IMG/VR virus record: IMGVR_UViG_3300031787_000071
Origin: an uncultured virus (IMG/VR IMGVR_UViG_3300031787_000071)
Lineage: Duplodnaviria > Heunggongvirae > Uroviricota > Caudoviricetes
Direction: 5' to 3' (one strand)
DNA: 64,000 bases
Position 1 is the first letter of the stretch. Each line of letters begins with the position of its first letter. The position numbers were made by a program, and so were the translations under genes. The notes beneath the pieces were generated by a model that was not told where the DNA came from, ran no database searches, and worked only from the letters and a program-made list of their open reading frames with translations. Shown here piece after piece: positions 5,439-34,466 of this stretch.

Positions 5439-6329
5439 TTAGTCTTGAGATGCGAGTGATTTAAAATAATCCAAATCATCATCATCAATATTTGATGAAG
5501 TATCGAATGAAGATCCATCAAGATCAGATGAAGTTTTAGGAACAAAATCTTCAGCTTTAGTTCTTGGTGCAACAGCTTCAAAACCTAGAGCTTTATCAAG
5601 ACGAGCTTTCAATTGCTCATACGATTTAAAGTTTTTCTTCTCTGTAAATTCTTTTAGGGAGAATTCTTTCTTCCAAAGTTCTTCAAGTTTATCATCATCA
5701 CCATCAAGAACAGCAGACTTATCTGCAAATTCCGATTTATCATAATTACGATAACCTTCAACATTACGAATCTTCAACTTGAAGTTAGCACCTTCCCATA
5801 GATCAAATGGGTTAACAGGTGTTTCATCAGCAAACTCAGGATTCATTGCTTCAGTAATCTTATCAAAGATTTTCTTACCGAATTTAAACAGTTTAATCTG
5901 TCCTTCGTTTTCTGGATTACTTGGATCCGAGATAACGAGAATATTTGCAATGTATGAGAGTTTACGTTTTTGTTTACGAGCAATATCTTTATTTGCTTCA
6001 ACACCAGAATTCCACAAAGTAGAATTGTGTTCGCAAACAGGACATTTATCGTTCAATGTAGTAAGACAGTTATCAATTAACCATCCACCAGGTCCCTGAA
6101 AACCGTGATGAAAAATTCTTACCCATGGTAGACCTTCATCACCATCTGCTGCAGGTGCTGGCAAGAAACGAATGACTGCCATACCATTACCAGCTTTATC
6201 AACTGATGGTTGCCAAAATCTATTATCGTCCTTTGAATTTGCTTCGCCAGATTGGGTTGTTGATTCAATCGCCTTTGTTAGTTTGTCCAACGAACTGCGA
6301 TTGCGTTTGAGATTTGCAAAACTAGACAT
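5439..6329 (-). CDS. gp32: Single-stranded DNA-binding protein gp32
   Basis: DNRFW, AVIRFLPA, HGFQGPGGW, NCLTT...CPVCE, FGKKIFDKI, NYDKSEF; acidic tail. Confidence 0.97.
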   Translation of the reverse strand: MSSFANLKRNRSSLDKLTKAIESTTQSGEANSKDDNRFWQPSVDKAGNGMAVIRFLPAPAADGDEGLPWVRIFHHGFQGPGGWLIDNCLTTLNDKCPVCEHNSTLWNSGVEANKDIARKQKRKLSYIANILVISDPSNPENEGQIKLFKFGKKIFDKITEAMNPEFADETPVNPFDLWEGANFKLKIRNVEGYRNYDKSEFADKSAVLDGDDDKLEELWKKEFSLKEFTEKKNFKSYEQLKARLDKALGFEAVAPRTKAEDFVPKTSSDLDGSSFDTSSNIDDDDLDYFKSLASQD

Positions 6330-11010: not shown

Positions 11011-11316
11011 TCACATACCAAAGGTTATAGCGGGAAATTCAGCTTCTCCGAATCGATTCTCAATCAACTCAACTAAAGAATTCATACATTCTTCCTCATC
11101 TTCACCATTTATATTTAAAATTAAAACACTGTTCGAGTAAAGAAAACTACTTGCAGATAATAACATTAATTCAATTATTGATTTGCCATTTGCAGTCTTT
11201 TCTCCATGAGTTACGACTATCTCACTTTTATAGTTTAATGAAGTCTCAACAAATTTTAATGCCGCTCTAGCATGAAGTCCTAATTCATTTATAAGTTTAA
11301 TTTCTTTAGTAATCAT
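11011..11316 (-). CDS. ptsH: HPr/NPr-family PTS phosphocarrier
   Basis: NELGLHARAA (phospho-His), NGKSI (regulatory Ser), GEDE...RFGE. Start moved to MITKE because the longer ORF overlaps the tmRNA. Confidence 0.9.
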   Translation of the reverse strand: MITKEIKLINELGLHARAALKFVETSLNYKSEIVVTHGEKTANGKSIIELMLLSASSFLYSNSVLILNINGEDEEECMNSLVELIENRFGEAEFPAITFGM

Positions 11317-11340
11317 TTTTTTTCTTCTTTTTATAATTGA

Positions 11341-11657
<317 letters not shown>

Positions 11658-11694
11658 CTCACATTATTACATAATATAGATTATTTGTCAAGCT

Positions 11695-26039: not shown

Positions 26040-26576
26040 TTAAAGTGTTTCGCCACCAATTGTGCGGTTACATGCACAGAGTTCTCCAGTTTGAAGAGCA
26101 TCAAGCACACGAAGTGTTTCATCTGGTGAACGACCTACATTGAGGTTGTTAACCGTAACGTGTTGTATAACATTATCAGGGTCGATAATAAAAGTAGCAC
26201 GAAGAGCTGCGCCCGCTGGTTCATAGAAAACTCCCAATTGTTCAATCAATGATACACCCCATTCACGCGAAGTATCAGCAAACTGAATGTGTTTGATTTT
26301 TTTCAAATCTTCATGTGAAGCCTGCCAACCAAGTTTACAGAATTCATTATCGGTAGAACCTGTCAATAGAACTGCATCACGGTCTGCAAAATCTTGGAAC
26401 AACTTATCATATGCCACGATTTCTGTTGGACATACAAACGTGAAATCTTTTGGATAGTAAACAATTACTTTCCACTTACCTTCAAAAGACTTTTCGGTAA
26501 TATCAAAAAATTTGTCACTACCAGGATTAATACCAGTTACTACGAACGGTTCAATTACATCGCCTACTGTTTTCAT
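26040..26576 (-). CDS. ahpC: Peroxiredoxin AhpC
   Basis: YPKDFTFVCPTE, RATFIIDP, GELCACN. Confidence 0.96.
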   Translation of the reverse strand: MKTVGDVIEPFVVTGINPGSDKFFDITEKSFEGKWKVIVYYPKDFTFVCPTEIVAYDKLFQDFADRDAVLLTGSTDNEFCKLGWQASHEDLKKIKHIQFADTSREWGVSLIEQLGVFYEPAGAALRATFIIDPDNVIQHVTVNNLNVGRSPDETLRVLDALQTGELCACNRTIGGETL

Positions 26577-26695: not shown

Positions 26696-26779
26696 TGGTG
26701 CGGGTAGCCAGATTCGAACTGGCACGCCTTTCAGCGGCGGGTTTTAAGCCCGCTGTGTCTACCATTCCACCATACCCGC
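26696..26779 (-). tRNA. tRNA-Leu(TAA)
   Basis: Cloverleaf, GCGGG-CT TAA AA-CCCGC, long variable arm, encoded CCA. Confidence 0.95.
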
Positions 26780-26780
26780 A

Positions 26781-27239
26781 TTATTTCGTTTTATTTCTAC
26801 CACAATAAGTGTCCGTTTGTGAATGACAATTCGGACAAATAATCATCAAATTATTCAAAGAATGATTATAACTGTTTCCATCAATATGTTCAAGCTGAAA
26901 CGACAATTCTTTACCGTTCCACTCAGTTATATCACACACTTCACATTTTTTTTCTTTATAACCTTCGTTGAATAATCTTTTTCTTAATTTATTTGTTTGA
27001 TACTCTGGATGTTTACCTTCTAAAATATCTTTTAATGATATCTTACCTGCGCCTTCTTTTTTAGGTTTTGATGTACCTAATCCACCTTGATTGGCCTTAA
27101 ACACTCCCAATCTTAAAGCATGAACACGATAAGTACCATATTGAATACCTAATCTTTGTGCTGCTTGCGTTGCTGAATGTGAAGTGTTAGACACTTCAAT
27201 TATTTCTTGATCGGTTGCACTTATTCTTTTCATAGACAC
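26781..27239 (-). CDS. HNH endonuclease
   Basis: CEVC, HIDG..N...NL..ICPNCH; TATAAATA late promoter near 27263-27270. Confidence 0.9.
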   Translation of the reverse strand: MSMKRISATDQEIIEVSNTSHSATQAAQRLGIQYGTYRVHALRLGVFKANQGGLGTSKPKKEGAGKISLKDILEGKHPEYQTNKLRKRLFNEGYKEKKCEVCDITEWNGKELSFQLEHIDGNSYNHSLNNLMIICPNCHSQTDTYCGRNKTK

Positions 27240-27273
27240 TCCTGAAAACTATCTGGAGTGTCTATTTATAAAA

Positions 27274-27744
27274 CTAAGCTGCTCGTAAACTTTTAAATCT
27301 ATCGGCAGCGTATGATGCCGCAAATGCATTTGGTTTGATTAGAGGTATAACATTACAAGTACCACGAATATAACCAATTGCTTCTTGCATCACACAGTTA
27401 CTTCCGTGATGCTCATCAGGATTAATATCCAAATGAACTTCAACATGTCTATTTTCAAGCACATCCGCAAGTTTAATGTATAAGTCAGAAACTTTATACA
27501 CTTCATTCATTAAACGATATCTAGGACGATTTTTCTTTTGATCATAATCTCTTTCTCTTTGTACTTCACCAAAAAGTTTACAACCATTATTTCCGTTTAT
27601 GTGAACTACTACAGCAAGAATGTAATCGGCGTACCAAACACCATCAACCTTAAATCGTTCAGAATCGCAACCAATATAAATTTTGGTTTCTGGTGATTGA
27701 CTATTGATATAATCTTTGATTTCATCCAAATCAAGTTTACGCAC
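27274..27744 (-). CDS. YkuK/DUF458-like RNase H-fold protein
   Basis: IYIGCDS, RLMNEV, EVHLDIN, KPNAFAASYAAD. Confidence 0.82.
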   Translation of the reverse strand: MRKLDLDEIKDYINSQSPETKIYIGCDSERFKVDGVWYADYILAVVVHINGNNGCKLFGEVQRERDYDQKKNRPRYRLMNEVYKVSDLYIKLADVLENRHVEVHLDINPDEHHGSNCVMQEAIGYIRGTCNVIPLIKPNAFAASYAADRFKSLRAA

Positions 27745-27763
27745 GATACATTCTCCTTATTAT

Positions 27764-27855
27764 TGGTGCCTCCGGCGGGAGTCGAACCCACATTGGCCAA
27801 TTATCTGTTGCACACGGGATATAAATCCGCTGTTTTACCATTAAACTACAGAGGC
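27764..27855 (-). tRNA. tRNA-Ile(TAT) with extended variable region
   Basis: GCCTCTG/CGGAGGC-ACCA acceptor; loop TT TAT AT; about 22-nt variable segment; GGTTCGACTCC T-arm. Confidence 0.75.
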
Positions 27856-27858
27856 GTT

Positions 27859-27933
27859 TGGTCCGGCGTGAGGGAATCGAACCCCCATTAAAGCTTTAGA
27901 AGAGCCTTGTCCTATCCGTTGAACGAACGCCAG
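27859..27933 (-). tRNA. tRNA-Arg(TCT)
   Basis: AGGCT-CT TCT AA-AGCTT; CCA. Confidence 0.92.
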
Positions 27934-27937
27934 AAAT

Positions 27938-28011
27938 TGGAGCGGAATACCAGAATCGAACTGGTGTCTAGACCTTGGCAAGGTTTTGTTCTACCATTAA
28001 ACTAATTCCGC
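27938..28011 (-). tRNA. tRNA-Gly(GCC)
   Basis: Loop TT GCC AA; GCGGAAT acceptor; TCCA end. Confidence 0.92.
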
Positions 28012-28017
28012 AAAACT

Positions 28018-28091
28018 TGGAGCGGGATATCAGAATCGAACTGATAACAACAGATTGGAAATCTGTAGTTTTACCATTAAACTAATCCCGC
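28018..28091 (-). tRNA. tRNA-Gly(TCC)
   Basis: ACAGA-TT TCC AA-TCTGT; TCCA end. Confidence 0.94.
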
Positions 28092-28249
28092 TTTGTTTCT
28101 TTTTTATCTTCAAAAGCATCCAATACACAATCTTCAGTACTTAAAATATCCTGATATTCATTCTTAAAAATTTTATCCCAATTATCAGAAAACTTATCTT
28201 GTGGAACCGAAAATGGTCTTGGTCTACTTCCTTTGCCGCCGTCACTCAT
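28082..28249 (-). CDS. Small protein MSDGGKGSRPRP... (55 aa); stop lies inside tRNA-Gly(TCC)
   Basis: Own translation; AAGGA RBS; GGKGS.PRP...NWDKIF motif seen in T4-like phages. Confidence 0.7.
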   Translation of the reverse strand: MSDGGKGSRPRPFSVPQDKFSDNWDKIFKNEYQDILSTEDCVLDAFEDKKETKRD

Positions 28250-28265
28250 TTTACTTCCTTGTTAT

Positions 28266-28340
28266 TGGTGCCCCCACCTGGAATCGAACTAGGAATTGAT
28301 GCTTACAAGGCAACCGTTATGGCCATTTAACTATAGGGGC
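28266..28340 (-). tRNA. tRNA-Thr(TGT)
   Basis: Loop CT TGT AA; CCA. Confidence 0.93.
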
Positions 28341-28359
28341 TATTATACACTACTTATGC

Positions 28360-28434
28360 TGGTAGTAGTGGCAAGATTCGAACTTGCACCTAACACCGTA
28401 TGAAGGTGGCGCACTACCATTATGCTACACTACC
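28360..28434 (-). tRNA. tRNA-Met(CAT), probably elongator
   Basis: Loop TT CAT AC; CCA. Met versus Ile2 identity is uncertain. Confidence 0.85.
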
Positions 28435-28436
28435 AT

Positions 28437-28514
28437 TGGTTGCGGGTGTGGGATTCGAACCACACGATTTCTTGCTTATGAGACAAGCGAGGACGACCTC
28501 TCCTCTAACCCGCA
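28437..28514 (-). tRNA. tRNA-fMet-like (CAT)
   Basis: TGCGGGT...ACCCGCAACCA acceptor like initiator tRNAs; loop CT CAT AA; lacks the three G-C pairs of the anticodon stem. Confidence 0.82.
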
Positions 28515-28561
28515 ATTGAAAAGGTGGGAGATTTTACTCTCCTCGCCTCACACGCGAAACT

Positions 28562-28645
28562 TGGTGGGTAGCCACGGAATCGAACCGCGTATGCCGAAGC
28601 GCCTGATTTACAGTCAGGTGTAGTCACCAATGCTACTCGCTACCC
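28562..28645 (-). tRNA. tRNA-Tyr(GTA)
   Basis: CCTGA-CT GTA AA-TCAGG; long variable arm. Confidence 0.94.
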
Positions 28646-28958
28646 ATATTAGATTTGCAGTTTATACTATTTGCTATGCTCAACGGAGTATCCGGCCGGA
28701 TTTACCGTTTATGTACATAGTTACGCAGGCATGATCAAGCCCATGGCTTACAAACTGCAAATTTAATATTGCTTAGGCCACGTTTTTCCACGGTCGCCCC
28801 CAAGCTGAGTTGTTACCCTGTCCGAACACTAAAAGCACTTTGCTACGTAGTGTCCACGCTGCTATGTTGTCCGAAGGTTCGCTTCACTAAAGGTGCCATA
28901 GCCACCTGGATTTTTTCGTGTACCAAACGCTACTTTTAGGAAAGTAGTAACCGGATTC

Positions 28959-29033
28959 TGGCTGCTCAGGTAGGGATCGAACCTACGACACACGGATTAA
29001 CAGTCCGCTGATCTACCGCTGATCTACTGAGCA
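28959..29033 (-). tRNA. tRNA-Asn(GTT)
   Basis: Loop CT GTT AA; GCCA end. Confidence 0.94.
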
Positions 29034-29040
29034 ATAAAAC

Positions 29041-29532
29041 TTAACGTTCAATAAAATCCATAGCTATTGAATATCTATCAATGTTTTTCCAAGGTGGAAC
29101 GGTATGCAATAAACTTGGATCAAAAAAAACTAAATCATTGTCTTTAACTTTTAACTGCAATAAAGCATTATTAATTTTAAATATTGTTCCATTCTCTGTA
29201 CAATTTTTAAGAAAAAAAACAGAAGTATATTTAAAATGCCTTGAACTTCTAGTCCTAATATGATTGTGAAATTCGAAATTGGAATCTTTCTTGCAAATAT
29301 TAAACCAACACTCAATTAATGTTATTCTTTCTCTCATTTCTGTTTTAGTTATATCATCAACTTTTTTTAAAAATTTTTTAAAAGATTCATTCTCATCATA
29401 CTTTAAATGCATATTAGTATGCGACTGATATAACGGAACATTTACATCAAAATTATTTTCAATTTCAAGGTCAATTAAGGAAACTATATTTTTTACATCC
29501 TCATTGTCTAAAATATTTTCTATTACAAACAT
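29041..29532 (-). CDS. 2OG-Fe(II) oxygenase-like protein
   Basis: WFNI, HNH, FDPSLLHTV, RYSIAMD. Confidence 0.78.
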   Translation of the reverse strand: MFVIENILDNEDVKNIVSLIDLEIENNFDVNVPLYQSHTNMHLKYDENESFKKFLKKVDDITKTEMRERITLIECWFNICKKDSNFEFHNHIRTRSSRHFKYTSVFFLKNCTENGTIFKINNALLQLKVKDNDLVFFDPSLLHTVPPWKNIDRYSIAMDFIER

Positions 29533-29555
29533 AAAAACATTCCTATAACATATTC

Positions 29556-29632
29556 TGGCGACACTTAGGGAACTCGAATCCCTGACCTCCGCCGTGACAG
29601 GGCGGCATTCTAACCAACTGAACTAAAGTGCC
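29556..29632 (-). tRNA. tRNA-Asp(GTC)
   Basis: CCGCC-CT GTC AC-GGCGG; GCCA end. Confidence 0.95.
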
Positions 29633-29832
29633 ATATTATTATGGTGGTTGGACGTTACACCAACTCTCTACTTACCACAAGGACGCCTTTCGGCTTCTCA
29701 TTACAGGTTGTTTCAGAGCACAGCCACTATACGGTGACCAAATCCTAACCTTGCTTCTTCACCATATTGAAACACACTTTACCAAGCTCCCATCCGGTGA
29801 CGGCCTCTAACCGTTCGAAATGTGCTTCAATA

Positions 29833-29907
29833 TGGTACACCGTAGGAGAATCGAACTCCTCTTACTGCCGTGAAAGGGCAATGTCCTAACCGATAGACGA
29901 ACGGTGC
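29833..29907 (-). tRNA. tRNA-Glu(TTC)
   Basis: Loop CT TTC AC; CCA. Confidence 0.94.
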
Positions 29908-30013
29908 ATAAAACTTAAAGCTAACAAGGAACTGACTGTTACATGATGCCGAAGTCATTGCTGCATCAAACCCTTGTTAAACTCTTTTCAGAGACAGATC
30001 GCTCACTTCTGTT

Positions 30014-30193
30014 TTATTTTACAAACCAATTTCCATCTTCAAAATAATATCGAACTCGTTTATTAAGTTTTTGAATCTTCACATCTTTACCAAACGCAGC
30101 ATAACCACGCTGGCGAAATTTAGCATCTTTTATACCAACAGCAGTTTGATTGCCAACTTTATACAAATTTAAACGGCCGAGATATATAATCAT
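30014..30193 (-). CDS. Small basic hypothetical protein (59 aa)
   Basis: Own translation MIIYLGRLNLYKVG...GNWFVK*; GGAG RBS. Confidence 0.65.
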   Translation of the reverse strand: MIIYLGRLNLYKVGNQTAVGIKDAKFRQRGYAAFGKDVKIQKLNKRVRYYFEDGNWFVK

Positions 30194-30234
30194 ATTTTCT
30201 CCAAAAGTTAGTATAAAAATAACTTTGTTATCAA

Positions 30235-30315
30235 CTTGTTAAAGAACTCTCAATCAACAAAGTACATTATACACTAGCCACAGAATTTGTCAAGCGTTGT
30301 TGCCAAAATACAACA
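30235..30315 (-). promoter_or_regulatory. Internal sigma70 promoter of the tRNA array, with upstream palindrome and downstream boxA-like site
   Basis: TTGACA(30293-30288)-16-TATAAT(30271-30266); TGTTG-N8-CAACA at 30298-30315; GTTCTTTAACAA at about 30247-30236. Confidence 0.75.
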
Positions 30316-30334
30316 TTATCAACTTGATAACAAA

Positions 30335-30412
30335 TGGAGGTAAGGGTGGGATTTGAACCCACGGTTTTACAGTTTTGCAGACTGCTGCTTTGGACCACTC
30401 AGCCACCTTACC
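30335..30412 (-). tRNA. tRNA-Cys(GCA)
   Basis: Loop CT GCA AA; TCCA end. Confidence 0.93.
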
Positions 30413-30413
30413 A

Positions 30414-31031
30414 TTAATCTACAGTAGGACCATTTCCATTTTTAAATCCAATAGTCCCACCTTGTTCTTTAATTTTTTTAATTGCATCTTCAAAAAGAAT
30501 CGGACGAAAATCGGTGTGTTCAACACAAGCGCACCAATATCTCGTATCAAGTACTTTTTTCTGTGTAGTAAAAGGTCTTTCATCGTAAGGACCCCATTCC
30601 TGTACATTAATATTTTTCATCACTCTATTGTAATGAAGATGTCCATGGATGTTTGTTCCAAATCGACCAAGACTTTCCTCATGTACAGGAATATGACTAA
30701 GAATCATTCCGTTCATTACATGATAACCACGAACATCACGAAAATGTTTAGTGTAATCTTCGAGTTTAAAAATGTCGTGATTGCCTTTAATCAATACTTT
30801 GTCTCCATTTAATCTTTCAAGGATTTGGAGAGACTTGCGATTAATTACAACATCACCGAGATGGTAAACTTTATCGTTAGGTCGAACTGTTTCGTTCCAA
30901 CGCTTTACCATTTCTTCATCCATTTCTTCTGGATTATCCCATGGTCTAAGTTTCGTACCATCGTCACGCAGGAATCTACATACGCCAGCATGACCAAAAT
31001 GTGTGTCACTTACTAGAAATACTGCTGGCAT
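30414..31031 (-). CDS. Metallophosphoesterase
   Basis: SDTHFGH, HLGD, GNHD, SHIP, HGHLH. Confidence 0.9.
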   Translation of the reverse strand: MPAVFLVSDTHFGHAGVCRFLRDDGTKLRPWDNPEEMDEEMVKRWNETVRPNDKVYHLGDVVINRKSLQILERLNGDKVLIKGNHDIFKLEDYTKHFRDVRGYHVMNGMILSHIPVHEESLGRFGTNIHGHLHYNRVMKNINVQEWGPYDERPFTTQKKVLDTRYWCACVEHTDFRPILFEDAIKKIKEQGGTIGFKNGNGPTVD

Positions 31032-31040
31032 AATGCCTCC

Positions 31041-31289
31041 TTATTTGAATGGAATTTCTTTTGAAGGATTTTCCAAAATATGTTCTACTACAAATACATC
31101 AAACAATTGATCATCTTCTGGATGTTTTATTTCTTCCAAAAAAGTATGATTAAACTTTGTTCGCCAATGTACAAATACTTGTTTATCGGCATTCCATCGC
31201 GCTTCACTTGCATTACGACAACTGCCTGCATAATAAGCGCCATGAATCAAATCTTGTTTTGCAATTTTAGCTTCATATGTTTTATACAT
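31041..31289 (-). CDS. Hypothetical protein
   Basis: Start moved to MYKTY (AAGGA RBS); GSCRNA..ARW motif. Confidence 0.7.
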   Translation of the reverse strand: MYKTYEAKIAKQDLIHGAYYAGSCRNASEARWNADKQVFVHWRTKFNHTFLEEIKHPEDDQLFDVFVVEHILENPSKEIPFK

Positions 31290-31303
31290 TATTTTTCCTT
31301 TAA

Positions 31304-31393
31304 TGGCGGTGAGTATTGGATTCGAACCAATGGAAGATTTAAACCTTCGACGGTTTAGCAAACCGCTGCCTTAAGCCACTCAGCCAACTCACC
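31304..31393 (-). tRNA. tRNA-Ser(GCT)
   Basis: Loop TT GCT AA; long variable arm; GCCA end. Confidence 0.94.
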
Positions 31394-31517
31394 ATTATAT
31401 CACAAAATTTAGCAAACATCAGGCAACTAAACATGAGTACCGCAATTGCAAATCCCATTACAAACCAATAAAAAAATATTTGTAAAATTGTATTGAGTAT
31501 CATGTTTTTCCTTTAAA

Positions 31518-31605
31518 TGGCGGAAGCGGTGAGATTCGAACTCACGGACCTTTTACAGTCGTCGGTTTTCAAGACCGATACCTTAAACCACTCAGACACA
31601 CTTCC
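31518..31605 (-). tRNA. tRNA-Ser(TGA)
   Basis: Loop CT TGA AA; long variable arm; GCCA end. Confidence 0.94.
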
Positions 31606-31612
31606 TTTAACT

Positions 31613-31688
31613 TGGCCGGTCCTGAGAGAATCGAACTCCCACTTGCGGAGTCGTATTCCGCCGTAATCATCCATTTTACTAAAGACCG
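31613..31688 (-). tRNA. tRNA-Arg(ACG)
   Basis: GCGGA-AT ACG AC-TCCGC; GCCA end. Confidence 0.88.
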
Positions 31689-31852
31689 AAAATAAATTTG
31701 TAGCCGGTGTGTACACATTGAGGCATCACCCTCTCCCGACACTCCGTTCACTAAGCACAGCCGTTCACTAATTCCTGATTGATGGTCAGTTTTCGTTAAT
31801 ACTAAGCCGTGTAGTTGTCCATCCCACTAGACTCTGCTCCTACTACAAAACT

Positions 31853-31929
31853 TGGTGCCCCAGAGGAGACTCGAACTCCTAAAATTTGGCTTCTAAGACC
31901 AACACGTATACCAATTCCGTCACCGGGGC
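31853..31929 (-). tRNA. tRNA-Leu(TAG), short variable loop
   Basis: TTGGT-CT TAG AA-GCCAA; no long variable arm. Confidence 0.9.
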
Positions 31930-31934
31930 AAATC

Positions 31935-32008
31935 TGGTCCTTCCGAATGGTAACGATCCACTGTCTCACGATTATCAGTCGTGGGCTCTACCTTTGAGCT
32001 ACGGAAGG
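31935..32008 (-). tRNA. tRNA-Ile(GAT)
   Basis: CACGA-CT GAT AA-TCGTG; CCA. Confidence 0.92.
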
Positions 32009-32011
32009 ATA

Positions 32012-32087
32012 TGGTGCAACCTGTAGGAATCGAACCTACTTCAACGGCTCTTCAGGCCGCCGCTATGACCACATCAGCTAAAGTTGC
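32012..32087 (-). tRNA. tRNA-Phe(GAA)
   Basis: Loop CT GAA GA; CCA. Confidence 0.93.
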
Positions 32088-32096
32088 ATTTGTAAA

Positions 32097-32172
32097 TGGT
32101 GGAGGATAGCAGATTCGAACTGCTGACTCATGCTTGCAAAGCACATGTGTTCCCAATTAGCACCAATCCCCC
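32097..32172 (-). tRNA. tRNA-Ala(TGC)
   Basis: Loop TT TGC AA; G3:U70. Confidence 0.94.
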
Positions 32173-32174
32173 CA

Positions 32175-32339
32175 TTAAACATAAAACTTTGTTTGATTCT
32201 GTTTCTTAAAGTTAATCAAACGATTTCTTTCACACCATGCACAACCGCCATGATGTTCGCAACTTGGTGAAACATATTGCGGATGACCATCTCTAACTTT
32301 CTTTGAAGTTTTTCTTTCTTTACGAAAAGTCCTAGACAT
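32175..32339 (-). CDS. Small basic Cys/His protein (54 aa)
   Basis: Own translation MSRTFRK...SCEHHGGCAWCERNR...; AGGAG RBS. Confidence 0.7.
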   Translation of the reverse strand: MSRTFRKERKTSKKVRDGHPQYVSPSCEHHGGCAWCERNRLINFKKQNQTKFYV

Positions 32340-32354
32340 ATCATTCTCCTAAAT

Positions 32355-32428
32355 TGGTCTCGGTAGAAGGAATCGAACCTCCGCCGCATGGTCCCAAACC
32401 ACGCATGATACCATTTCACCATACCGAG
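32355..32428 (-). tRNA. tRNA-Pro(TGG)
   Basis: Loop TT TGG GA; CCA. Confidence 0.93.
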
Positions 32429-32433
32429 TTATT

Positions 32434-32508
32434 TGGTGCATCGTGATGGATTCGAACCACCGACAACTTGCTTGTAAGGCAAGGACTCTACCACTGAGCT
32501 AACGATGC
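32434..32508 (-). tRNA. tRNA-Val(TAC)
   Basis: CTTGC-CT TAC AA-GCAAG. Confidence 0.94.
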
Positions 32509-32509
32509 A

Positions 32510-32585
32510 TGGGGTAACCTATGAGGATCGAACTCATACTGCCAGGTCCACAATCTGGCGTGCAGACCACTACACTAAGGTCACC
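32510..32585 (-). tRNA. tRNA-His(GTG)
   Basis: Loop TT GTG GA; G-1:C73. Confidence 0.93.
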
Positions 32586-32673
32586 ATTGTACCATATAGA
32601 AACACATTCTTGGATTCTCGTAACAGTAATCCATAGCGCCGGCCGCCATTATGTGTTTGAATGTGTTTTTATA

Positions 32674-32749
32674 TGGTGGGGCCACAGGGATTCGAACCCT
32701 GACCTTACAGATTAAAAGTCTGATGTCTTAACCGTTTGACTATAGCCCC
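32674..32749 (-). tRNA. tRNA-Lys(TTT)
   Basis: Loop CT TTT AA; CCA. Confidence 0.94.
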
Positions 32750-32888
32750 CTCATCTTGTCACTCTTGTCACTATCCATAACAGGACTCCTTTAAAAATTT
32801 TTGTGTATATAAAATAAAAAAACCATTACTAGAACTAAAACTGACATTGCCCCATGATTGTTTCTCCTTATTATAGTTTTCATAATCA

Positions 32889-32962
32889 TGGCCTCGATGC
32901 ACGGACTCGAACCGCGACAAGCAGTTTTGGAGACTGCTGTGCTGCCATTACACCACACCGAG
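32889..32962 (-). tRNA. tRNA-Trp(CCA)
   Basis: GCAGT-CT CCA AA-ACTGC; GCCA end. Confidence 0.93.
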
Positions 32963-33044
32963 ATTCTACCCAAATAGAAGAATACTCTGTCGCCGTTTTT
33001 GCTACGCAGGTAACGACCAAGACCTCAAAGAGTATTCTTTTGTT

Positions 33045-33118
33045 TGGCAGGGGATATAAGAATCGAACTTATAACCTCGGAATCAAAATCCGGTGTGATA
33101 CCATTTCACCAATCCCCA
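33045..33118 (-). tRNA. tRNA-Gln(TTG)
   Basis: Loop TT TTG AT; GCCA end. Confidence 0.93.
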
Positions 33119-33224
33119 ATTGATCCGAATTTTACTCTGCTGTTATCGCCAGCGTTTTTATCCTCGGTTCCGACCTTTTGCCATTTTATTGTACGCCGGC
33201 TCACACTCGTTGCGAATAGCGTAT

Positions 33225-33303
33225 AAAACAAAAAACCCTAAGTCTTTCGATCTTAGGGTTTTTGTAGGTTATCTGGTTACTTCAATAATCTATACAAAAA
33301 CCC
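33225..33303 (-). terminator. Attenuator: intrinsic terminator with competing antiterminator
   Basis: Terminator CCCTAAG-ATCGAAAGA-CTTAGGG-TTTTTTGTTTT; antiterminator GGGTTTTTGTA (33303-33293) pairs with TACAAAAACCC (33266-33256). Confidence 0.85.
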
Positions 33304-33415
33304 CTTGATTGTGATAGCCAATTCCGCTTGTATTACTAAAGCGTACTGAGGCCTGCCAAATCGATGGCATTTCTATATCTAAACAGGGTTTACAATTAAA
33401 AGTGTTTTTTGTCAT
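33290..33415 (-). CDS. Putative attenuator leader peptide (41 aa, all 20 amino acids)
   Basis: MTKNTFNCKPCLDIEMPSIWQASVRFSNTSGIGYHNQGVFV*; last codons overlap the antiterminator strand. Confidence 0.75.
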   Translation of the reverse strand: MTKNTFNCKPCLDIEMPSIWQASVRFSNTSGIGYHNQGVFV

Positions 33416-33423
33416 AGTACATT

Positions 33424-33514
33424 TATTTATATCTTTTTACTGCGAAATTTAATATGTGTGTAGTATATATCAAAAAATATTTTTTGTCAAGCGGTTTGTT
33501 GGGTAAATACAACA
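33424..33514 (-). promoter_or_regulatory. Tandem promoters for the leader and tRNA array
   Basis: TTGACA(33490-33485)-17-TATACT(33467-33462); T4 late TATAAATA (33431-33424); TGTTG-N8-CAACA at 33497-33514. Confidence 0.8.
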
Positions 33515-33548
33515 TTATCATTTTAACAACTAATTATCAAATTGTTAA

Positions 33549-33625
33549 TGGTGGGCCGGGTGAGACTCGAACTCACTGTCCCCCGATTATGAGTCGGACG
33601 CTTATACCAATTAAGCTTCCGGCCC
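33549..33625 (-). tRNA. tRNA-Ile2(CAT), probably lysidine type
   Basis: GGGCCGG acceptor; TCCGA-CT CAT AA-TCGGG, typical of Ile2. Confidence 0.85.
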
Positions 33626-33635
33626 CACTAAACTA

Positions 33636-34466
33636 TTATAGACCAAATTCAATATTCTTAATTGAATCGAATCTAAACGAACGCCAACCTTTTGCTTCTA
33701 CATCAAAAACAGGCAATGCATCTTCTGAAAATTTTCTTTGTGGTTCAGTATTTTTTGGAATCCAGTGTTCGGAAATCACTTCATCTTTTAGTGTACATTT
33801 CATCACTCTTTCTGTACCATCAGATTTAGTAAAAGTAACTTCAACAACACCATCTTTCAAAAGACCTTTGATCCAATCTTTTGCGGTATCTGAAGTAAAG
33901 TCGTCTGGTTCATCATCATCATTACTCCAATCTATTTCTTCATTCCATTCTGCATCATCCAACATGCGATCACGAATACCCCAATATTCAACTATATCCT
34001 CAGGAATATCATCCAGAGATTCTAGGTCAGAATATTCATAATTTTCATCAATACCATCAACGAATTTACCAACGAAAGCCATACCTTCTTCGTGATAATA
34101 AGCTTCTACATCAAATCCTTGATTTTCCATTTCTTCATACAATGCAATTGGAGGTCCCCAAGGCGAATCGAACCAGAATGTAATAGTATCTTCATCACGA
34201 TCCCAATCTTGAGCGTCACAATTCCATTTACAACCCCAATTATCTAACGACCAAGAATACCAATCTTGATATCCATACTTAGCCATCAGTTCTTCGTTGC
34301 GTTTATCGTGGAATGAAACATCACCAACATTTTTCAATTCTTCAGGACAAGGCAGAATGAAGTCGAACCACTCTTTACCATTTTTATCATCCAGAAATTT
34401 TTGAAATTTATCAATAGATTCGATATCACCCTTCACAGTGATAGAGTTGTTGCACCAATTAGGCAT
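33636..34466 (-). CDS. DUF1281/YubB ferredoxin-like domain fused to a C-terminal WYL-like SH3 domain
   Basis: MPNWC.N, WY.W...NWG.KWN, F.SPW.PP; acidic linker; V.FTKSDGTERVMKCTL...VFDVEAKGWRSFRFD. Confidence 0.75.
   Translation of the reverse strand: MPNWCNNSITVKGDIESIDKFQKFLDDKNGKEWFDFILPCPEELKNVGDVSFHDKRNEELMAKYGYQDWYSWSLDNWGCKWNCDAQDWDRDEDTITFWFDSPWGPPIALYEEMENQGFDVEAYYHEEGMAFVGKFVDGIDENYEYSDLESLDDIPEDIVEYWGIRDRMLDDAEWNEEIDWSNDDDEPDDFTSDTAKDWIKGLLKDGVVEVTFTKSDGTERVMKCTLKDEVISEHWIPKNTEPQRKFSEDALPVFDVEAKGWRSFRFDSIKNIEFGL

Follow-up and report, generated by a model that had tools for sequence, protein, structure and literature searches.

Layout of the leader, terminator and tRNA array

The 64,000-nucleotide (nt) stretch of DNA analysed here (the window), from the uncultured virus IMG/VR IMGVR_UViG_3300031787_000071, carries on its minus strand an element composed of a short leader open reading frame (ORF), a predicted transcription attenuator and an array of transfer RNA (tRNA) genes. 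All features of the element lie on that strand and are described below in their 5' to 3' order. The upstream neighbour of the leader is the gene of a 276-residue protein (34466..33636), which is followed by a lone tRNA-Met gene (33625..33549). The promoter of the leader consists of a −35 hexamer TTGACA (33485..33490) and a −10 hexamer TATACT (33462..33467) separated by a 17-nt spacer, and matches the sigma-70 consensus at 11 of 12 positions. Its −35 hexamer lies within a repeated promoter module, GCTTGACAAA, kept in L004, the closest of the related loci described below. The leader ORF (33290..33415) has 41 codons and a TAG stop and encodes the peptide MTKNTFNCKPCLDIEMPSIWQASVRFSNTSGIGYHNQGVFV*, in which each of the 20 amino acids is present one to four times; 31 different sense codons are used, and codon runs are absent.

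Inside the ORF are a hairpin, P1 (GCCA..TGGC, 33355..33368), which ends at an invariant Trp codon and is a candidate RNA polymerase pause hairpin, and a P3/P2 domain (33316..33354), in which a GGCC/GGCU pairing encloses CGCUU/AAGCG. The last four sense codons (33293..33304), which precede the TAG stop at 33292..33290, form segment 2, the 5' strand of the predicted antiterminator (GGGGTTTTTGTA). The 3' strand, segment 3 (TACAAAAACCCT, 33255..33266), shares its last 4 nt with the beginning of the 5' arm of an intrinsic terminator, CCCTAAG-ATCGAAAGA-CTTAGGG followed by T6 (33230..33258), whose hairpin is CCCTAAGATCGAAAGACTTAGGG (33258..33236). The duplex of GGGGTTTTTGTA and TACAAAAACCCT has 12 pairs, one of which is G-U. 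The tRNA array (26696..33118) contains 26 genes for 20 amino acids according to ARAGORN. Its first gene, tRNA-Gln(UUG), begins 172 nt past the leader stop and 111 nt past the T6 tract of the terminator.

This layout agrees with an earlier reading of the same DNA (the original prediction), which had described a 41-codon ORF with all amino acids and 31 codons, a terminator opposed by pairing with the ORF end, and 26 downstream tRNA genes for all 20 amino acids. A recount gives 41, 20 and 31; the window holds the 12-bp helix and the hairpin with T6; and ARAGORN confirms the tRNA genes. That reading had also placed two promoters upstream of the leader. The sigma-70-type promoter stands, and the second one, the "T4-late" sequence TATAAATA (33424..33431), is rejected: it has no functional support, the window contains 3 matches where 7.9 are expected, and L004 has TACTAAATA in its place.

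Conservation of the leader and of its complete amino-acid set

The neighbouring 276-residue protein served as the entry to relatives and led to 17 IMG/VR loci. The nine closest have a tRNA array just downstream, and one of the nine is without the leader. In the leader-bearing syntenic loci, an ORF of 40–42 codons lies between a TTGAC[AT]-17-TA[TC]AAT promoter and a terminator. A DNA motif scan yielded 15 true loci among 18 matches, a profile search of 1.84 billion protein representatives yielded 27 matches (21 short peptides), a second protein search 33 matches and a separate metagenome scan 32 loci. The leader ORF, carried by a freshwater phage family, is found in 58 metagenomic or viral loci, which represent 40 distinct DNA versions; three further distinct versions, beyond the 40, were found later. 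The ORF is missing from L007, from L014–L020, which are more distant relatives of the neighbouring 276-residue protein, and from three chance motif matches and two promoter-repeat loci. Another record, G001, comes from the same phage (100% identity) and is uninformative as a comparison. Loci and protein libraries were pooled into a set of 68 distinct full-length peptides, for which six N-terminally truncated gene calls were dropped and four N-terminally extended ones were trimmed to the homologous Met.

DNA and peptide searches of GenBank phages gave no relative of the leader, and their matches were tRNA-like pieces only. A DNA-pattern scan of bacterial genome contigs gave at least 120 matches, and none of the 80 examined belongs to the leader family (they are GC-rich chance hits), which does not in itself show absence from bacterial genomes. 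The leader peptide has no match in Pfam. Comparison of the leader RNA with Rfam gave four matches, which scored far under the gathering threshold and included no leader or T-box family.

The leader is strictly linked to tRNA genes. A same-strand tRNA gene lies 84–177 nt past the leader stop in 38 of the 40 versions and at 576 nt in one; the remaining locus ends 124 nt past the stop, too early to tell. The first tRNA is Gln(UUG) in 36 versions and Ser(UGA) in three. Computation shows both the conserved architecture of the element and this linkage.

The promoter is similarly constant: TTGAC[AT] is present in 38 of 40 relatives, and in 38 of 40 the −10 hexamer ends a fixed distance before the ATG, 6 nt in 14 versions and 9 nt in 24. 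This fixed gap points to a leaderless or nearly leaderless message, with start sites that are predicted. A Shine-Dalgarno motif precedes only 28 of the 59 long ORFs of the window. The 10-mer GCTTGACAAA also occurs exactly at 11693, 30295 and 53482. The upstream part of the module (AATGTTGTATTT..CAACAA..CGCTTGACAAA) is common to the minus-strand copies at 33492 and 30295. Directly behind another copy of GCTTGACAAA (promoter 11693..11684) lies a phage transfer-messenger RNA gene (11301..11685, minus strand) with the tag ANDETFALAA.

An unusual property of the leader is its complete amino-acid set. All 20 amino acids are encoded in each of the 40 versions, which have 39–48 codons and use 29–37 different ones, and likewise in the three later versions, again within 39–48 codons. 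At the level of peptides, 64 of the 68 distinct full-length sequences are complete. Such completeness is rare by chance. The original prediction had suggested a comparison with random 41-codon windows of the genome, and in a six-frame null only 42 of 23,314 stop-free 41-codon windows of the DNA (0.18%) hold all 20. Random peptides of the family's composition are complete in 0.8% (39 residues), 1.4% (41 residues) and 3.9% (47 residues) of cases, and a uniform composition gives 4.5% at 41 residues. When residues are shuffled within alignment columns, a mean of 18.9 of the 68 peptides (28%) remain complete, with a maximum of 30 in 2000 shuffles. These values are far below 64 of 68, so conserved columns do not explain the coverage.

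The positions that supply the set are not fixed. Those of His, Cys, Pro, Asp and Lys differ between clades. On a minimum spanning tree of the peptides, a residue present as a sole copy is changed on 28 edges (48 residues), and 25 of the 28 children keep 20 of 20. With the changed positions kept and the new residues drawn at random, the joint probability of the retained set is ~1e-22. In one example, from the window to P0044, the substitution E15V loses the only Glu and G31E brings one back. The peptides are related and the tests correct for kinship only partly, although the direction and size of the effect are still clear. The complete amino-acid set is shown by these computations to be under selection.

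Only one frame behaves in this way. The other two sense frames contain stops in 40 of 40 versions and never hold 20 amino acids, and the antisense frames contain stops in 109 of 120 cases. Among 38 close pairs, differences number 60, 74 and 116 at codon positions 1, 2 and 3, respectively, and 76 of 209 changed codons are synonymous. Codon usage in the leader is not unusual: the mean synonymous fraction is 0.46, compared to 0.47 ± 0.05 for the 59 long window ORFs, and the G+C content at third positions is 0.32, compared to 0.24. The GC-rich codons of the leader, which the original prediction had regarded as unexpected usage, fall in RNA helices and are explained by them.

RNA helices, terminator and antiterminator

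RNAalifold analysis of 39 leaders yields three elements within the ORF and the terminator. P1 is paired in 95.9% of cells with both-sided changes in two of five pairs. P2 is a covarying hairpin (96.8% paired, both-sided changes in two of four pairs) located inside P3, a nearly invariant pairing of AGGCC with GGCUU. P1 and P3 account for the invariant DNA strings TGGCAGGCC and GGCTTTATTGG. Taken together, P1, P2, P3 and the antiterminator are 87.4% paired, compared to 31–48% when partner columns are slid, and contain 10 both-sided pairs versus 4.9 in shuffled alignments (none of 500 reaches this number). P1 lies ~13 nt upstream of an invariant C73-G74 dinucleotide, and G64 is invariant as well; G64 (position −10), C73 and G74 would fit the G-10/Y-1/G+1 pause consensus.

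The in-ORF helices bear on whether the ORF might encode a small protein with a function in the phage, served by a promoter and terminator of its own, the complementarity to the terminator flank being incidental and the tRNAs being expressed by leak-through or from other promoters. The ORF is conserved, with motifs such as WQA.YR and NGFIG and an excess of differences at third codon positions, and a terminator follows it, all of which a small protein would account for. However, the peptide is without a Pfam match, its conserved motifs map onto P1 to P3, and a folded 40-residue protein gives no reason for keeping all 20 amino acids through the turnover of their positions. The ORF 3' end also covaries with the terminator flank, and the tRNA linkage is strict. 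Taken together, these properties make a small protein highly improbable.

The terminator is present in 39 of the 40 versions. Across these 39 sequences, 96.3% of cells are paired and compensatory changes occur in five of 10 pairs; both-sided cells number 31, compared to 6.6 in shuffles (none of 500 reaches 31), and pairing falls to 7–66% once the partner columns are slid. The antiterminator is 77% paired with both-sided changes in six of 12 pairs, a figure in which the long-type rows, off by one column in the MAFFT alignment, are scored as broken pairs. Its duplex energies range from −13.9 to −21.0 kcal/mol. The covariation of both helices is thus shown by computation.

Three strands change together, as exemplified by GAGG/CCTC/GAGG and TCTTGTG/CACAAGA. 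In the window, segment 2, segment 3 with the 5' arm, and the 3' arm read GGGGTTTTTGTA, TACAAAAACCCTAAG and CTTAGGG, respectively; L004 has the same segment 2 with CCTCAAG and CTTGAGG. Most clades carry GGGTTTGTG, CACAAACCCTAG and CTAGGG, the L009 clade GAGGTTTGTG, CACAAACCTCAGA and TCTGAGG, and the long-type leaders GGGTCTTGTG, CACAAGACCCGAG and (T)TCGGG. The long-type leaders (46–48 codons; L046, L054, L055, L059, L063, L069, L070, L052, L060, L061 and L056) have an extra helix flanking the stop codon, e.g. CGGGAT..ATCCCG, which brings their antiterminator to −22 to −33 kcal/mol.

The best partner of segment 3, sought in 24-nt windows of the ORF, lies close to the ORF end (0–18 nt away) in all 40 versions. 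Nascent RNA folded as far as the terminator loop has its 5' arm paired with the 3' end of the ORF, again in all 40. In 29 versions the stop codon is part of segment 2 or adjoins it; in the 11 of the long type, it is located in the apical portion of the extended antiterminator hairpin. For the full-length RNA, the mean energy difference between the terminator and antiterminator states is only 2.7 kcal/mol. Pairing of segment 2 with segment 3 of another sequence shows no discrimination, and this test is uninformative because many clades share the same core. The homologous loci, which keep the ORF length and the 20-amino-acid coverage in 40 of 40 versions (64 of 68 peptides) along with both covarying helices, strongly support the core idea of the original prediction.

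The likeness to the trp and his leaders asserted in that prediction is not complete. A trp-like 1:2 pairing, hinted at by the minimum-energy fold of the window, is rejected as neither conserved nor better than shuffles. No conserved 1:2 anti-antiterminator was found in the 40 versions: the best upstream partner of segment 2 has a mean energy of −9.7 kcal/mol compared to −17.2 kcal/mol for the antiterminator, and its z-score against shuffles is ~0.3, with none of the 40 versions below −2.

RNA libraries give a glimpse of the transcript. Fourteen RNA runs hold small shares of the stretch, and in the libraries of three studies contigs bridge the termination point (X1, 33141–33291; X3, 33121–33343; X4, 33125–33335). 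They end 3, 7 or 23 nt short of the 5' end of tRNA-Gln, which fits read-through RNA cut by RNase P. Nothing is inferred from the part of the locus without cover in these libraries (33344..33543). Two of the three contigs begin close to the Arg codon at the base of P2 and may represent a stable processed leader fragment.

The RNA contigs, which span the region from mid-ORF to just before the tRNA-Gln 5' end, would also be expected if the tRNA precursor had a structured but non-coding 5' leader, serving its processing or stability or acting as a small RNA, with an open frame that is incidental. P1, P2 and P3 are well supported, and the window copy is without a Shine-Dalgarno motif, as such an RNA could well be. 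The chance of this is very slim, however: in each of the 40 versions a single frame is open, the other two being closed, and only that frame spells all 20 amino acids; the ATG keeps a fixed spacing of 6 or 9 nt behind the −10 hexamer, and Rfam gave no match to the RNA.

The existence of terminator-bridging contigs and the near-equal energies of the two states also leave room for a different output, in which passage of the ribosome allows read-through or the alternative helices direct RNase cleavage. We regard such a reversed or altered output as very improbable. The stop codon lies in or beside the 5' strand of the antiterminator and not that of the terminator, so a terminating ribosome can only remove the antiterminator, and a hairpin with a U-tract is a canonical intrinsic terminator.

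Proposed attenuation mechanism and its relation to known systems

Judged from its sequence, the element is probably a ribosome-mediated leader-peptide transcription attenuator, which heads a phage tRNA array and uses an 'alphabet' leader to gauge overall decoding capacity. A strong sigma-70-type promoter would start a short RNA, whose 5' end in most members would lie at or ~3 nt from the AUG, making it a leaderless mRNA. A ribosome would then read ~40 codons that jointly require every amino acid, and P1 may act as a hairpin-stabilised pause at which RNA polymerase awaits it. The last codons would double as the 5' strand of the antiterminator, the partner of which overlaps the 5' arm of the terminator. 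If the ribosome reached the stop codon while the polymerase was still making the terminator, it would cover segment 2 (or sit in the apex of the long-type hairpin); the 5' arm would then pair with the 3' arm, the terminator would fold and the tRNA genes would be off. If the ribosome were held earlier by a shortage of any charged tRNA, or never loaded, the antiterminator would form first and transcription would read through into the array. Without an anti-antiterminator, the antiterminator should form once segment 3 is made, so that both the untranslated and the stalled states would read through. The array would be on at poor decoding and off at good decoding, which would amount to negative feedback because the array products speed up the leader's test.

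The balance of the evidence leans toward a more specific form of this proposal, in which the leaderless 'alphabet' leader polls essentially every amino acid and the antiterminator is on by default. The element would then be a viral feedback sensor, supplying spare tRNAs when those of the host run short, are not charged or are cleaved by anticodon nucleases, and shutting them off when translation is free. We infer that the leader is translated and that the switch has the polarity described; its physiological trigger could be amino-acid starvation, host shut-off or tRNA-cleaving defences.

The same attenuator might instead gauge the general capacity or coupling of translation (supply of ribosomes or initiator tRNA, or elongation speed) rather than each aminoacyl-tRNA, in which case the complete set would do no more than render the test message representative. 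The leaderless starts predicted for 38 of 40 versions would make loading depend on 70S ribosomes and initiator tRNA, failed initiation would also yield read-through when there is no anti-antiterminator, and Val lies mostly outside the stall-sensitive zone, all of which suits a general gauge. A pure gauge of speed or loading, however, does not need at least one codon per amino acid to be kept, nor lost singletons to be regained (25 of 28 edges), and we consider this alternative unlikely.

The reach of a stall can be estimated by assuming that the ribosome footprint extends 13 nt past the first A-site base. Under this rule, a stall would mask the antiterminator strand in the last 6–10 codons of short-type leaders and in the last 11–14 of long-type ones. 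The original claim that a stall at any earlier codon frees the antiterminator is too broad in this respect: it fails for these last codons, to which Val is limited in 31 of 40 versions. Tyr34 and His35 of the window leader fall on the border of the stall-sensitive zone.

Several observations weigh against a sensor of every amino acid, or against attenuation as such. The stall-sensitive zone holds all 20 amino acids in only one of the 40 versions, 19 in 26, 18 in seven, 17 in three and 15 in three, the last being versions in which the predicted duplex is over-extended. Val is confined to the masked zone in the 31 versions mentioned; it is encoded by segment 2 itself (GUUUGUG) and is probably not sensed. 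Four database peptides are one amino acid short (P0005 and P0032, Val; P0019, Phe; P0039, Arg). RNA helices occupy the same places as the conserved peptide motifs WQA and GFIG, so coding cannot be deduced from sequence conservation by itself. The window and L004 have their promoter 46 nt before the ATG, and the resulting 5' untranslated region is without a Shine-Dalgarno motif. In 32 of 40 versions, the terminator state is favoured by a small margin, and the antiterminator overlaps the terminator 5' arm by only 4–10 nt; with so short an overlap and the more stable terminator, strand displacement could blunt the switch. The RNA contigs have a depth of only 2.6–4, may stem from DNA carry-over and do not show true ends. 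Finally, L007 (4990..5560), which is syntenic and related to the L009 clade, has an array but no leader; the first tRNAs are missing too, and tRNA-Cys comes directly after a 149-residue ORF.

The proposed attenuator can be compared to several known systems. The trpL, hisL, leuL and pheL attenuators combine a leader ORF with mutually exclusive antiterminator and terminator helices and in-ORF pause hairpins. The phage element resembles them in its promoter, short ORF, exclusive helices, a stop codon placed for removal of the antiterminator and in-ORF hairpins that could pause RNA polymerase. Unlike them, it has no runs of a single codon, and without a 1:2 pairing the lack of translation would result in read-through rather than super-attenuation. 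It also differs in being viral and, by prediction, mostly leaderless, and in that it would regulate tRNAs and not biosynthetic enzymes. Multivalent attenuators are represented by the ilvGMEDA leader (Ile, Leu and Val) and the thr leader (Thr and Ile), which, as proposed for the phage leader, sense more than one amino acid through mixed regulatory codons. These involve two or three related amino acids in clusters, whereas the phage leader keeps all 20 under selection. T-box riboswitches bind one uncharged tRNA directly and require no ribosome. Both they and the phage element as proposed tie antitermination to tRNA charging and control genes of the translation apparatus, but the phage element has no T-box match in Rfam and its ORF is under selection.

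Full-text literature searches, whose scope leaves subscription journals largely outside, returned no published account of leader-peptide control of tRNA genes. To our knowledge, the control of phage tRNA genes, and the reason why large phages carry near-complete tRNA sets, are largely unknown. A leader with 20 amino acids would be a new use of ribosome-mediated attenuation, as a general decoding gauge and not a sensor of one nutrient, and would place tRNA genes themselves under translational feedback. It would provide a directly testable link of phage tRNA arrays with host tRNA depletion and anti-phage tRNases. As a compact natural part of ~190 nt, it could report global translation capacity. 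A complete set kept through positional turnover is an unusual signal and can be used to find further leaders of this kind.

The tRNA array and neighbouring genes

The array contains ORFs and at least one more promoter (30293..30266), in line with the original caveat that the distal part of the array has a promoter of its own. This promoter leads to a 59-residue ORF with a GGAG ribosome-binding site, and no leader-like terminator pair is seen there by eye. Given the internal promoters and ORFs, only the first block of tRNA genes would surely be gated by the leader element.

In L004, a tRNA with the anticodon CUA (6021..6095), labelled 'tRNA-Pyl' by ARAGORN, may be an amber suppressor. The leader stop is TAG in the window, L004, L012 and L009, so ribosomes would run on into the antiterminator and terminator if this stop were suppressed.

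The phage encodes a gp32-like protein, which makes it a member of the wider T4-like group. Several protein genes on the minus strand accompany its tRNA genes. An RNase H-like gene (27274..27744) and a gene of an AhpC/TSA peroxiredoxin (26040..26576) lie inside or next to the array. A 152-residue ORF with a CPNCH motif occupies 26781..27239, and a metallophosphatase-like gene, whose match is below the Pfam cut-off, is located at 30414..31031.

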